From an uncultured archaeon (GTDB lineage Archaea; Asgardarchaeota; Thorarchaeia; Thorarchaeales; Thorarchaeaceae), in contig CAYYQL010000030.1 of the NCBI GenBank assembly GCA_964473825.1, forward strand, positions 12,638 through 32,995: a stretch of DNA of 20,358 nucleotides. The letters are read 5' to 3'. Positions within the stretch are counted from its first letter, which is position 1, and every line of letters begins with the position of its first letter. Below are positions 5,836 through 16,404 of this stretch, in pieces. A model generated the notes under the pieces. It saw only the letters and a list, made by a program, of their open reading frames with translations, searched no databases and was not told the DNA's origin. The position numbers were made by a program, and so were the translations under genes.

Positions 5836-6864
5836 ATGTCTAATTTCGAGCTCATCAAAGAGACCCTGATCGGCAATTTGGGGGAGAGAGTACCCATATC
5901 CATTTGGAAGCACCATCCTGAGCTGGATAGAACTCCTGAAGGTCTAGCAGAAGAAGAGATTGCTTTCCATCGGAAGTATGATCATGACTTGCTGAAGATA
6001 TCCTTCCATGGAAGATATCCTGTGGTTGACTGGGGTTGCGTTGCGATATACGATGGCTCTCCATCGGGGTCTACTACCTGTAAGAGTTGTGCGGTGCAGA
6101 AGGCCAGTGATTGGGAAACCCTTGAGCCGCTTGATGTTAATGCGGGAGAGTTCGGTCGTCAGGTTCATGCAGTCAAGCTGATCCGCGACTACGCCCAAGA
6201 AACTGTTCCTACCATGTCAACAGTCTTTGACCCTGCCATGGTTGCAGAGAAGCTTTGTGAAAAGAAGTTTATCCACTACATAGAGAACAACCCGGAGACT
6301 ATGAAGGGTGTACTTGAGATGATTACCGATGTCATGGCCGATTTCGGTAGAGCCACTCTTGATGCCGGAGCCAATGGCATATTCTTGGCTTCCCAACACT
6401 CCACCGAATCCGCCGTTACCGACAGCCAGTACGATGAGTTTGTGCTTCCTTATCAGAAGAGGCTACTCTCAAGGCTTCGTGGAAAAGCAGACTTTGTCGT
6501 TTTGCACCTCCATGCTCGTGACGAGGGTGAGCAAATCCGTTTCAATCCCATATCCAAGACTCCGGGAACTATCGGCATAAACTGGGAAGACCAAACATCA
6601 GCAACCAGTTTGAAGGAGGGAAAGAAATTGACACGAAAGACAGTCCTTGGTGGAATAGACCACAGAGGTTGGTTCAAGACAGGTACCGCAGAGGAGGTCA
6701 CGGAGGAGATCATTGAGACCCTGCAATCGGCAGGCCTTCGTCGTCTGATTGTTGCGCCCGGATGCGTTGTTCAAGTTGATACCCCAGAAGAGAACATAGA
6801 AGCAGTTGTTGACGCTGTCAAAGCAATCAATCCTTGGTCTAGAGGCTGGGAGGACTACACATGA
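5836..6864 (+). CDS. Uroporphyrinogen decarboxylase (UroD/MtaA-CmuA) superfamily protein, not canonical HemE
   Basis: TIM-barrel family motifs: LDAGANGIF, Y.EFVLPY, LHLH, LGGID, IVAPGC...TPEENIEA. Lacks the HemE RQAGR motif and has WKHH instead. Confidence 0.8.
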   Translation: MSNFELIKETLIGNLGERVPISIWKHHPELDRTPEGLAEEEIAFHRKYDHDLLKISFHGRYPVVDWGCVAIYDGSPSGSTTCKSCAVQKASDWETLEPLDVNAGEFGRQVHAVKLIRDYAQETVPTMSTVFDPAMVAEKLCEKKFIHYIENNPETMKGVLEMITDVMADFGRATLDAGANGIFLASQHSTESAVTDSQYDEFVLPYQKRLLSRLRGKADFVVLHLHARDEGEQIRFNPISKTPGTIGINWEDQTSATSLKEGKKLTRKTVLGGIDHRGWFKTGTAEEVTEEIIETLQSAGLRRLIVAPGCVVQVDTPEENIEAVVDAVKAINPWSRGWEDYT

Positions 6865-8573
6865 AGAACAAGGTCATTGCACAAATTCTGGCTGAGATCA
6901 GCATTCTAGTTGAGGTTGCCGGAGCGGAGCCGTATAAGGCAAGGGCTTACAGTAGAGCAGCACGCTCCATTCGCAATCTAGGCGAAGACATTGAGGCGAT
7001 AGCAGATCGAGGAGAACTCACAGAGATTCCCGGAATTGGGAAAGGTATTGCTGAGAAGATCAAATCTTATCTTGAAACGGGTTCCATCGATGAGCTTGAT
7101 CGACTCCACAAGAGGGTGCCCATCAATGTCCGGGAACTAGAGGCAATTCCGGGAGTGGGACCCAAGACAATCAAATTGCTCTACGACGAGCTCAAGATTG
7201 TTAATCTGGACTCGCTGGAGAAGGCAGCACGGGCTGGAGAGATAGCTGGCTTGAAAGGTATGGGTGAGAAGACCGTGAGCCAGATTCTGGAGGGCATCGA
7301 ACTGGTCCGGTCAGGGCTGAAGAGAACGCTGCTGTCTGACGCGTTAGCGGCTGCAGAACGGATGAGCACTCATCTGGACTCTCATGCTGACATTAATCAA
7401 CTCACAATAGCAGGGTCCATTCGGAGGAGAAAAGAAACAATCGGCGATGTTGACATTCTTGTTGATGCAGATGACTGGGAGTCTGCGGTAGAGGCCTTCA
7501 TCAGTCTGGATGATGTTGATGACGTAATCGTGAGTGGGACTACAAAGACCTCTATTCGTCTGAGCAGTGGTCTGCAGATGGACCTTCGATTGCTTCCTTC
7601 GGAGAGCTACGGTGCTGGTCTTCAATATTTCACAGGAAACGTTGACCATAATGTCAGACTGAGGTCGATCGCCCGCAAGAAAGGGCTAAAACTCAATGAA
7701 TACGGCCTCTTCAAGGGCGAGAAACGCATTGCTGGGGAGATTGAGGAGGCCCTCTACCGGAAACTTGATCTCGATTTCATCTTGCCCGAGCTTCGTGAGA
7801 ATACAGGAGAGATTGAGGCCGCTCAGTCAGGTCAACTCCCGGAGGTCATCGACCTTGATGATATACGTGGAGACCTTCATGGGCATACTGATCAATCGGA
7901 TGGCGCGAATAGCATCGAGGAGATGCTCAATGCTGCATGCGCTTTGAACTACGAATACTACTGTGTATCAGATCATACCCAGAGCCTTACAATCGCGAAT
8001 GGGATGGACGAAGATGAGGTCTTGGCGCGCATTGAAGAGATTGATGCACTGAATGCCTCTGGTCATTGGAATATGCGCATCTTGAAAGGTGCTGAGGTTG
8101 ATATACTTGAGAATGGCGAGCTCGACTTGGATGATGCCGTTCTTGATGCTCTCGACATAGTCACGGCCTCGATTCATAGCAGAATGAAAGACAGCAAAGA
8201 GAAGATTACCGAAAGAGTCTGTACGGCACTTGAACACCCGAATGTCCACGTTCTTGGGCATCCCACAGGACGTCTTCTCCTCAAGAGATCCGAGTATGAG
8301 ATTGACCTTGATGCCGTCTTCGAAGTCGCGAAAAGAAACAATGTTATCATGGAGCTCAATGCCCATCCCATGCGACTTGACCTGAGTGCTGGAAATCTGA
8401 GAAAGGCAACAGGCTTGGGTCTGAAGATTGTCATCAATACTGACGCTCACAGAACCGATGAGCTTCAGAACATGAGATACGGTATCTTTCAGGCTCGCCG
8501 CGGCTGGGTCACCAAGGATGATGTGGTCAATACCTATCCGCTAGAAGAATTGATGAGCATTCTACGGAAGTAG
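6861..8573 (+). CDS. polX: DNA polymerase X with C-terminal PHP nuclease domain
   Basis: HhH motifs (IPGIGKGIA, IPGVGPKT), GSIRR.KETIGDVD plus MDLR catalytic Asp triad, YFTG, LNEYGL. PHP motifs DLHGHT, SDH, GAEVD, GHPTGR, NTDAH. Confidence 0.96.
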   Translation: MKNKVIAQILAEISILVEVAGAEPYKARAYSRAARSIRNLGEDIEAIADRGELTEIPGIGKGIAEKIKSYLETGSIDELDRLHKRVPINVRELEAIPGVGPKTIKLLYDELKIVNLDSLEKAARAGEIAGLKGMGEKTVSQILEGIELVRSGLKRTLLSDALAAAERMSTHLDSHADINQLTIAGSIRRRKETIGDVDILVDADDWESAVEAFISLDDVDDVIVSGTTKTSIRLSSGLQMDLRLLPSESYGAGLQYFTGNVDHNVRLRSIARKKGLKLNEYGLFKGEKRIAGEIEEALYRKLDLDFILPELRENTGEIEAAQSGQLPEVIDLDDIRGDLHGHTDQSDGANSIEEMLNAACALNYEYYCVSDHTQSLTIANGMDEDEVLARIEEIDALNASGHWNMRILKGAEVDILENGELDLDDAVLDALDIVTASIHSRMKDSKEKITERVCTALEHPNVHVLGHPTGRLLLKRSEYEIDLDAVFEVAKRNNVIMELNAHPMRLDLSAGNLRKATGLGLKIVINTDAHRTDELQNMRYGIFQARRGWVTKDDVVNTYPLEELMSILRK

Positions 8574-8625: not shown

Positions 8626-8710
8626 AGTCACAAATTGTGACTTCATTGCGTGACCCTCCATTGTGGCTTCGCATTATATACTCATTCTGAGCAGTATTTC
8701 TTGTGAAATA
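8626..8710 (+). promoter_or_regulatory. Promoter of the micro-peptide unit: palindrome, TATA box and second inverted repeat
   Basis: Perfect inverted repeat AGTCACAA-A-TTGTGACT (8626-8642), TTATATA (8674-8680), and TATTTC-ttgt-GAAATA (8695-8710) at the expected start site just before ATG 8713. Confidence 0.6.
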
Positions 8711-8712
8711 TC

Positions 8713-8817
8713 ATGGCTCTAACAATCAACAACCGGACTGACTCCGAGAAGAAGAACATCGCAAAGCCCCAGAGCACCAAGGCTCTGGCCCATGCATACT
8801 GCTACTCCCTAAGGTGA
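8713..8817 (+). CDS. Small peptide A, 34 aa: MALTINNRTDSEKKNIAKPQSTKALAHAYCYSLR
   Basis: ATG 32 nt after a TATA box; ends TGA followed by TAA. Its C-terminal motif is shared with the next ORF through synonymous codons. Confidence 0.68.
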   Translation: MALTINNRTDSEKKNIAKPQSTKALAHAYCYSLR

Positions 8818-8823
8818 TAACCA

Positions 8824-8907
8824 ATGCGAATCGTACGAAAGGTCAACGAGACTTCAAAGGCTGATGTGTCAACCAAGGCCCTTGCCTACGCTTACTTCAG
8901 GAGATAG
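8824..8907 (+). CDS. Small peptide B, 27 aa: MRIVRKVNETSKADVSTKALAYAYFRR
   Basis: AGGTGA archaeal SD at 8812-8817, 6 nt before the ATG. Shares STKALAxAY with peptide A. Confidence 0.68.
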   Translation: MRIVRKVNETSKADVSTKALAYAYFRR

Positions 8908-8948
8908 GCTATTTGTGGTCATACACCACTGCTGACTCTTCTAGCTTG

Positions 8949-9024
8949 TCGTCACAGTCCCGCAAGGACTATGATGAATCTACGGAAGACACCAATCCCA
9001 GGTAGTCTTCCATTCTTTCTGTTT
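8949..9024 (+). terminator. Double stem-loop plus T-rich tract 3' of the peptide genes
   Basis: TCGTCACAGTCC-cgcaa-GGACTATGATGA (8949-8977); GGAAGACACC-aatccca-GGT(A)GTCTTCC (8984-9011); then ATTCTTTCTGTTT. Confidence 0.5.
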
Positions 9025-9096
9025 CAAGCCCTCTTTCTTCGGTGATACTAGTCTTTTCTGCTAATATCTCAAACCAGGGCTAATCAGAATTGGAGA

Positions 9097-9210
9097 TGGT
9101 GCCGAGAGGGAGATTCGAACTCCCGAACTCCTGCGAGAACGGATGTCTCATCAGGCCTGAGCCAACAGATCTTGAGTCCGTCGCCGTTGGCCGGGCTTGG
9201 CTATCTCGGC
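9097..9210 (-). tRNA. tRNA-Leu(CAA) with 26-nt intron at position 37/38; CCA encoded
   Basis: Acceptor stem GCCGAGA/TCTCGGC-A-CCA, anticodon stem ACGGA/TCCGT, loop CTCAAG^A, long variable arm, TTCGAAT T-loop. Intron at 9145-9170 with bulge-helix-bulge (CTCA/TGAG helix, AGA and ACA bulges). Confidence 0.96.
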
Positions 9211-15490: not shown

Positions 15491-15787
15491 TCATATCTCG
15501 ATGCCAAAGGCTTCTGAGAACCTCTCTACCTTGGTGAACTCTTGGAGGAAGTCCCTTCCCTTGCTAGTCAGATAGTATACTCTTGACTCGCCTTCCACTT
15601 CGGTCTCAGAGATCAACTCTTTCTCAATCAATTCTTCCAGATACTGGGTCAGCCTGTCGTAGGAGAGATTTGCACTATACAGAATTTTCGTCGGACCTGC
15701 TCCGTACTCTCCCTCCCCCTTGATAGCGCGCATCATATCAACTAGAATACGCACCTTAGAGCGATACGGCCGCCTCGGACTCATCAT
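15491..15787 (-). CDS. Winged helix-turn-helix regulator (HTH_45-like)
   Basis: RSK..I..D, PTKILYSANLSY..L..YL..L, YYLTSKGRDFL pattern. 4-nt ATGA overlap with the upstream membrane-protein gene. Confidence 0.88.
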   Translation of the reverse strand: MMSPRRPYRSKVRILVDMMRAIKGEGEYGAGPTKILYSANLSYDRLTQYLEELIEKELISETEVEGESRVYYLTSKGRDFLQEFTKVERFSEAFGIEI

Positions 15788-16404
15788 TCCTTTCCTGCCT
15801 TGACAAGCATGACCAAGAAGAAGATGAAGCCTAGAAACTGGAACACCTGACTCAGGGTGTAACCCCTGAGTTCCGTCTGGGCCGGAATTGCAACCACATG
15901 GCTGAGTAGGAGAAGTGCGAATCCGATTAGCACATATGCCGCATACTTGCTCCTTGTCGACATGTAGTTCATCAGGGCCTGTATCACCACAACTATCAAC
16001 ACTATTATCGCAATAAAGTCGAGATTGGGATCAACAAGGACGGGCAGGGCCATCAACACGACACTGGACTTGAGCGTCGGTGACTTCGTTGCGCGTGTAG
16101 AGATGGCGAACAGGACATAGGCCATGATCTTCATCGCACCATAGGCTATTGTTATCACCGCCATCATCAAATTGGCACCACCCATCCCCTCTCCAATTAA
16201 TACAAAGAAGTAGATGGTTCCAATCACCCTGCTAAACATCGCCGCAGAGAGGACAATGAAGCCCGACGAGAGATCCGAGAGCCGCTTCTGTTCTGTCAGG
16301 TGATACGCCTTGTTCGCATAGTGACTGATTACGAGGGCTATCAGACCAGCAACCGATTCCAAAAGCAAGTCCAACCGAATCAGGGAGGCCAGCCAGCTCT
16401 GCAT
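15784..16404 (-). CDS. Polytopic membrane protein (about 6-7 TM), possible sensor
   Basis: Successive 20-aa hydrophobic segments with short basic loops. Coupled to the wHTH gene. Confidence 0.8.
   Translation of the reverse strand: MQSWLASLIRLDLLLESVAGLIALVISHYANKAYHLTEQKRLSDLSSGFIVLSAAMFSRVIGTIYFFVLIGEGMGGANLMMAVITIAYGAMKIMAYVLFAISTRATKSPTLKSSVVLMALPVLVDPNLDFIAIIVLIVVVIQALMNYMSTRSKYAAYVLIGFALLLLSHVVAIPAQTELRGYTLSQVFQFLGFIFFLVMLVKAGKE

Follow-up and report, generated by a model that had tools for sequence, protein, structure and literature searches.

The two tandem micro-peptide genes examined here belong to a multicopy family of basic micro-proteins in Thorarchaeota (Asgard archaea) that we could not assign to any described family, and they lie behind an operator that also precedes efflux-type transporters, peptidases and a bactofilin-like gene in several archaeal lineages. 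They therefore look like outputs of an old stress circuit rather than precursors of a modified antibiotic, although their expression and function are inferred from sequence alone. In what follows, genomes (G), contigs (C), retrieved loci (L) and taxonomic families (f) are numbered; G000 is the genome under study and f1 the Thorarchaeota family.

The micro-peptide operon

The window, a stretch of 20,358 nucleotides, is contig C30 of a 3.27 Mb, 95.7%-complete genome of a Thorarchaeon whose PyrH is 88% identical to that of a Candidatus Thorarchaeota MAG. ORF A (8713-8817, + strand, 34 aa, pI 9.7, GRAVY -0.70) and ORF B (8824-8907, + strand, 27 aa, pI 10.5, GRAVY -0.48, ending YFRR) are separated by 6 nt and lie between polX (6861-8573) and a convergent tRNA-Leu(CAA) (9100-9210, - strand) that is not part of the unit. 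This tRNA, the only Rfam match, has an intron of about 38 nt that ARAGORN missed and Rfam found, and the cassette lies beside it in several genera.

The preliminary description had reported two short ORFs sharing a ten-residue block, of which eight residues are identical and four of those eight use different codons, together with a TATA box, an overlapping Shine-Dalgarno sequence and following hairpins. All of this was confirmed. The TATA box, TTATATAC (8674-8681, + strand), lies 32 nt before the ATG, which implies a start site near 8705 and, by inference, a nearly leaderless mRNA. The Shine-Dalgarno AGGTGA of ORF B (8812-8817, + strand) is formed by the last codon and stop of A, and the last codons of B form AGGAGA for the next ORF. 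Hairpins follow (z = -3.2 for 8900-9080). The core is also 80% identical over 25 nt, so the pair is an old duplication kept by protein-level selection. Of 3391 adjacent short-ORF pairs in the genome, only 6 reach 8/10 identity, and the other five look like DNA repeats, N-runs or low-complexity sequence.

Conservation of the frames in relatives had been named beforehand as a test of the genes, and orthologous loci in two congeneric genomes keep both. ORFs A and B show 16 synonymous and 6 non-synonymous changes relative to the orthologues in G002 (pN/pS 0.11; 0.12-0.23 in the other pairs), indicating purifying selection. Across 147 distinct family genes, the motif S-T-x-A-[ILV]-x-[YH]-A-[YF] varies almost only at third codon positions for Thr and Ala (codon-position entropies of 0.18/0.06/1.61 and 0.10/0.00/1.71 bits, respectively), and Ser uses both codon families. 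However, the terminal Arg is nearly always AGG or AGA within the ribosome-binding site of the next ORF, so it may be kept partly for that reason and we do not count it as a purely protein-level feature. The His and Cys of peptide A are not conserved: Tyr (78), His (23), Arg (12) and Phe (10) are found among the 147 genes at the His position, and Cys is Arg in both orthologues.

The preliminary description missed a third ORF, C-prime (8913-9005, + strand, 30 aa), which is acidic (pI 4.2), starts with TTG here but with ATG in both congeners, and is under weak selection (pN/pS 0.35-0.65). Its stop codon lies in or at the 3' arm of a hairpin (8984-9011) that is followed by a T-rich tract, and this region (8984-9025, + strand), kept in both congeners with paired changes, is the probable 3' end of the transcript. 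C-prime is the positional equivalent of the acidic peptide C that occupies the third position of the usual cassette. Peptide C ends in EVLALEAT or a close variant, a tail coded by a hairpin that shows paired changes (GTA with TAC, CTT with AAG) as well as synonymous changes, so both RNA and peptide are constrained. C-prime has lost this tail but keeps a hairpin over its stop, in the same layout as the canonical C hairpin.

The multicopy nature of the cassette had also been missed. The promoter plus start of A occurs at four loci of this genome and in 81 of 86 family genomes at 1-9 copies. A peptide profile finds a fifth locus (C6:11394-11930, - strand) with three A/B genes plus C and a weak sixth (C14:4073-4365, - strand), giving 5 clear loci and 11 clear A/B genes. 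The profile hits 43 of 43 Thorarchaeota genomes, with 1-12 hits each, and gives only three weak hits (E 0.004-0.05) in 157 other Asgard genomes. The A-B gap varies from 5 to 8 nt, so read-through is not required. Of five apparent B-C fusions, the one examined was traced to gene-calling with TAG read as Gln.

No known family matched the peptides. Pfam scans of A and B, an NCBIfam scan of 58 members and a PDB search returned no hit, and the ESM Atlas gave no usable hit for A. A search of 1.84 billion representatives returned 52 hits, of which 50 are family members and two are repeat-protein artefacts. We found no paper describing the family, albeit in an incomplete literature collection. A gene family with up to a dozen copies per genome is missing from the annotation of an entire Asgard family.

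The operator and its regulon

A perfect 17-bp palindrome, AGTCAC-N5-GTGACT (8626-8642), lies upstream of ORF A. It is followed on the + strand (8650-8667) by two further half-sites, GTGAC (8650-8654) and GTGGC (8663-8667), at a 13-nt period, the last of which lies 6 nt before the TATA box, where a purine-rich BRE would be expected. The general pattern is GTCAC-N5-GTGAC followed by half-sites every 13 nt, ending 6 nt before the TATA box, and the ATG sits at operator+86 in most copies. In this genome, a matrix built from 133 sites finds the operator only at four peptide loci and before a bactofilin-domain gene (PF04519) on C9. The unit on C9 (31714-33386; L058:1170-2842) comprises an HTH_45 gene, the operator and a 414-aa bactofilin-like Gly-Gly repeat solenoid, the most constant member of the regulon, and a divergent 248-aa gene without Pfam hit is conserved beside it in Thorarchaeota. 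The unit is conserved from Thorarchaeota to Bathyarchaeia.

In other Thorarchaeota the operator also precedes an unknown membrane protein, two MFS families and, in some genomes, an S41 peptidase, a protein with a weak PD40 propeller hit (probably a peptidase), a GNAT, a nitroreductase and an LLM oxidoreductase. The membrane protein (L186:1148-2257, L097:7894-9628) has 305-385 aa, an acidic N-terminus and no Pfam or NCBIfam family. Its only Atlas match is a hypothetical Thorarchaeota cluster, and in G083 it is followed by PadR and a BtrH_N/DUF4872 gene. MFS1, closest to the DHA3 H+-antiporter / Mef(A) models but below their cut-offs, takes the third position in place of peptide C in 27 retrieved loci (some retrieved twice), mostly 5-6 nt after peptide B. 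MFS2 follows at 200-300 nt in others. In G044 (L096:4297-8079) an operator-peptide-S41 peptidase-operator-peptide-MFS2 arrangement apparently arose from a local duplication.

The exact operator pattern occurs in 39 of 43 f1, 8 of 21 f5, 11 of 19 f12 and 1 of 3 f27 genomes (12/12 with one mismatch in f27), in 0 of 40 f9 genomes and in 0 of 10 f22 genomes, with reversed-pattern controls near zero. Viral contigs gave no operator match. f5 contains Ca. Heimdallarchaeota AB_125, and f27 is in the same class. In these two families the operator precedes unrelated-looking 28-34 aa Lys-rich peptides with a hydrophobic end and a conserved Gly, often in tandem pairs and, in several f27 loci, directly before the bactofilin-like gene. 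f12 has a third type of peptide. These unannotated basic peptides (28-40 aa over all loci: L214, L253, L258 and L264 in f27, with tandem pairs; L152, L157 and L158 in f5; L166 and L170 in f12) differ in sequence from A/B. Profile-profile comparison of the Thorarchaeota peptides with those of f5/f27 found no homology (probability 0.1%, score 5.5 against a shuffled mean of 5.1), and we treat them as analogues by position and composition only. In Bathyarchaeia and similar metagenome contigs the operator precedes the bactofilin-like gene and an MFS gene, and we saw no clear peptide family there. A small ORF between HTH_45/operator and the bactofilin-like gene in a non-Asgard contig (L271:4769-4984) ends in an aromatic, Arg-rich tail loosely like A/B, and ORFs of 48-49 aa between the operator and an MFS gene in L286 and L298 (family of a Bathyarchaeota genome) are not clearly conserved with each other.

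The candidate regulator is a 104-aa HTH_45 protein encoded directly before the operator-bactofilin unit in Thorarchaeota. Its orthologues occur in 41/43 f1, 18/21 f5, 17/19 f12, 3/3 f27, 0/40 f9 and 0/10 f22 genomes, matching the operator, but also in f2, f15 and f25, where the exact operator pattern was not found. Relatives lie next to the bactofilin-like gene in three non-Asgard loci, one named Bathyarchaeota, and one protein (P0289) fuses the two. The structural model of the HTH_45 protein matches Sso10a-2 best (TM 0.68). Its assignment as regulator is an inference from co-occurrence, adjacency and this one fusion. The HTH_45 gene within the window (15491-15787) is a distant paralogue (31 versus 185 bits) and not the candidate regulator; a 206-aa membrane protein without Pfam hit overlaps it (15491-16404, - strand), a layout recalling pf1089/TFB-RF1.

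Some peptide copies and MFS2 use two other promoter types. A GTTTG-N5-CAAAC palindrome lies against the TATA box at the C6 cassette, divergent from a winged-helix gene, and the same palindrome precedes MFS2 at C12:2684. A third conserved element consists of three TGGTCAC-like repeats and a closing GTGACCA (C14:4073-4365, - strand; L068:1658-1732, L078:1421-1494, L096:5993-6067) and precedes second peptides, MFS genes and one diverged peptide after the pyruvate phosphate dikinase-like gene. It gave no common RNA fold and reads better as a protein-binding array. The peptides and MFS2 therefore share more than one control input.

Possible functions of the peptides

We tentatively propose that the operon (basic A, basic B, acidic C) is self-contained and a main output of a conserved archaeal regulon whose peptides act unmodified. 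Protein-level selection on the genes, and the sharing of the operator with the genes above, are established by our analysis; the remainder is inferred. We hypothesize that the HTH_45 / Sso10a-fold winged-helix protein binds the operator and activates the weak-BRE promoter in the manner of TFB-RF1, and that the regulon answers to toxic-compound or envelope stress, as its content (exporters, peptidases, an acetyltransferase, a nitroreductase, a solenoid scaffold and a membrane protein) resembles such responses (compare PMC11237479). The peptides would be made in quantity from near-leaderless mRNA, with the Lys-rich N-terminal part as a flexible tail and the C-terminal motif as a short docking element. 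They are hydrophilic overall, with a net charge of +3 to +9 across the family and selection on a short uncharged motif, which fits a docking motif better than a membrane-spanning or strongly lytic peptide.

The most likely partner is the co-regulated MFS transporter, which the peptides may modulate or which may carry them. This is suggested by the direct coupling to MFS1, by promoters shared with MFS2, and by the correlation of peptide count with MFS2 count across 33 genomes (rho 0.69) and 16 genus means (rho 0.72), whereas peptide count and genome size do not correlate (rho 0.26); these values are not corrected for phylogeny. However, most copies, including this one, have no transporter beside them. 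MFS1 was not found in this genome or in 24 other of 46 genomes, G006 and G017 have a peptide hit but neither MFS, and MFS2 sits under the operator without peptides in f12. Shared promoters and correlated copy numbers can arise from promoter capture and shared ancestry alone, and known small transporter regulators such as AcrZ are transmembrane, whereas these peptides are hydrophilic. A bolder and doubtful possibility is that an old archaeal stress circuit of HTH_45 activator, operator, bactofilin-like solenoid and MFS transporters, shared by several Asgard lineages and Bathyarchaeia, uses arrays of about 30-aa basic peptides as diffusible effectors, each Asgard lineage carrying its own peptide sequence family, and that the product in the third position (acidic peptide, exporter, peptidase or solenoid) binds, exports or removes them. 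If so, this would be a peptide-based defence or communication system not described in the closest prokaryotic relatives of eukaryotes.

Other explanations appear less likely still. A and B could be leaderless multi-peptide antimicrobials, with the gene in third position (acidic peptide C, MFS exporter, S41 peptidase or, in f27, the acidic beta-solenoid) providing interchangeable self-protection. Tandem cationic paralogues of 27-37 aa without a leader, the alternation of C and MFS1, the peptide-S41 coupling in G044 and the peptide directly before the bactofilin-like gene (pI 4.9 in this genome) in f27 are consistent with this. Yet their negative GRAVY contrasts with +0.37 to +0.71 for the listed bacteriocins (PMC6131525), no sequence matches a described member, and presence in every Thorarchaeota genome tested, at fixed chromosomal sites and with no operator in viral contigs, is unlike the patchy distribution usual for bacteriocins. 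A similarly unlikely role is that of abundant protective proteins that bind nucleic acid or ribosomes under stress (SASP-like or hibernation-factor-like), the transporter link being only co-regulation. High, homogenised copy number (five near-identical cassettes in G010), Lys/Arg richness and a near-leaderless mRNA would fit, but selection falls on the uncharged motif rather than the basic stretch, no solved structure matches, and the translational coupling to MFS1 is left unexplained. About as unlikely is an auto-inducing loop of the Rgg/SHP kind, with peptides exported by MFS, trimmed by S41-type peptidases and feeding back on their regulator. The basic N-terminus with a hydrophobic conserved C-terminus, the transporter and peptidases in the regulon and the lineage-specific peptides under one operator point this way, whereas the inferred regulator is a bare winged helix without a TPR or other ligand domain, up to 12 genes per genome with near-identical copies suggests a need for dosage rather than signal specificity, and some copies have other promoters.

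The preliminary interpretation is only partly supported: an undescribed paralogous peptide family under protein-level selection is right and understated, and short linear-motif ligands (which we rank highest) or signalling peptides remain possible, but its suggestion of RiPP precursors resembling biarylitides or cittilin is not supported. Y-x-Y spacing is common, and one RRE-radical-SAM-SPASM gene (C12:60797-62218; L192:1393-2814) could act in trans. It is 70-80% identical across Thorarchaeota, has orthologues in 33/43 family genomes and reaches no NCBIfam cut-off. However, it has its own neighbourhood (a divergent ~132-aa gene and a large membrane/secreted protein), lacks the operator, and was not found in several peptide-bearing genomes of 88-98% completeness (G014, 97% complete with 5 peptide hits, G012, G008, G020 and G023). 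No P450 (PF00067) or YcaO was found in this genome, and no modifying enzyme is co-transcribed at any of the roughly 100 loci read, although the family searches did not extend to lanthipeptide, ATP-grasp or MNIO enzymes. The first aromatic is often replaced by Arg, Glu or Gln, and the analogous f27 peptides mostly lack aromatic pairs. We consider this reading very unlikely. A lasso peptide (Thr at -2, then Ala) was rejected because the putative core has no Asp/Glu. That the frames are mere by-products of a multicopy DNA element or non-coding RNA is already largely refuted. The 88-nt promoter is indeed more conserved between copies (74-92%) than most of the coding part, and the terminal Arg and the tail of C overlap RNA signals, but third-position-biased variation, Ser coded by both TCN and AGY, low pN/pS, SD-coupled starts and frames kept despite length changes argue otherwise, and the 5' region does not fold better than shuffles (z -0.95).

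Comparison with known systems

What is new is a family that matches no described family or system by the features tested, although its mechanism may still turn out to be of a known kind (small-protein transporter regulator, antimicrobial or signal). The operator gives a predicted transcription-factor regulon that can be traced across Asgard lineages and into Bathyarchaeia, with a named candidate regulator that can be tested in vitro without culturing the organism, and provides a regulatory context for an uncharacterised archaeal bactofilin-like protein.

The TFB-RF1 (PF1088) regulon of Pyrococcus furiosus (PMC5937170) has an activator binding a palindrome with a 5-nt spacer just upstream of a weak BRE and TATA box, a layout found here by sequence position only, and holds a drug-exporter-like transporter and an unknown membrane protein. 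Its motif (TCTG-N5-CAGA) differs, its transporter is ABC rather than MFS, and no micro-peptides or bactofilin are reported for it. The Thermococcales glycolytic motif of TrmBL1/Tgr, TATCAC-N5-GTGATA (PMC4158304), shares the TCAC-N5-GTGA core, and its upstream position likewise means activation, but the candidate regulator here lacks a sugar-binding domain, there are extra half-sites at a 13-nt period, and the targets are not sugar genes. PSP/Lia-type envelope-stress neighbourhoods with Toastrack beta-helix proteins (PMC11237479) also combine a beta-helix protein, a membrane protein, a winged-helix regulator and a transporter in one circuit. In our case, however, the beta-solenoid scores as bactofilin rather than Toastrack, no PspA or PspC was seen under the operator, and no peptide arrays are described in those neighbourhoods. 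Biarylitides and cittilins share the aromatic-x-aromatic spacing near the C-terminus, but biarylitide precursors are 5 aa and need a P450 (PMC13417212), while the peptides here are 27-37 aa with aromatic positions that are not fixed, no P450 and no clustered maturase. Multi-peptide leaderless bacteriocins (aureocin A70, garvicin KS, cereucins; 30-31 aa and +3 to +5 in PMC6131525) are likewise tandem short cationic paralogues of about 30 aa without a leader, near a transporter, as is psm-alpha. The Thorarchaeota peptides differ in being hydrophilic, in sharing a fixed motif, in being chromosomal, multicopy and present throughout a family, and in their association with an MFS rather than an ABC transporter.
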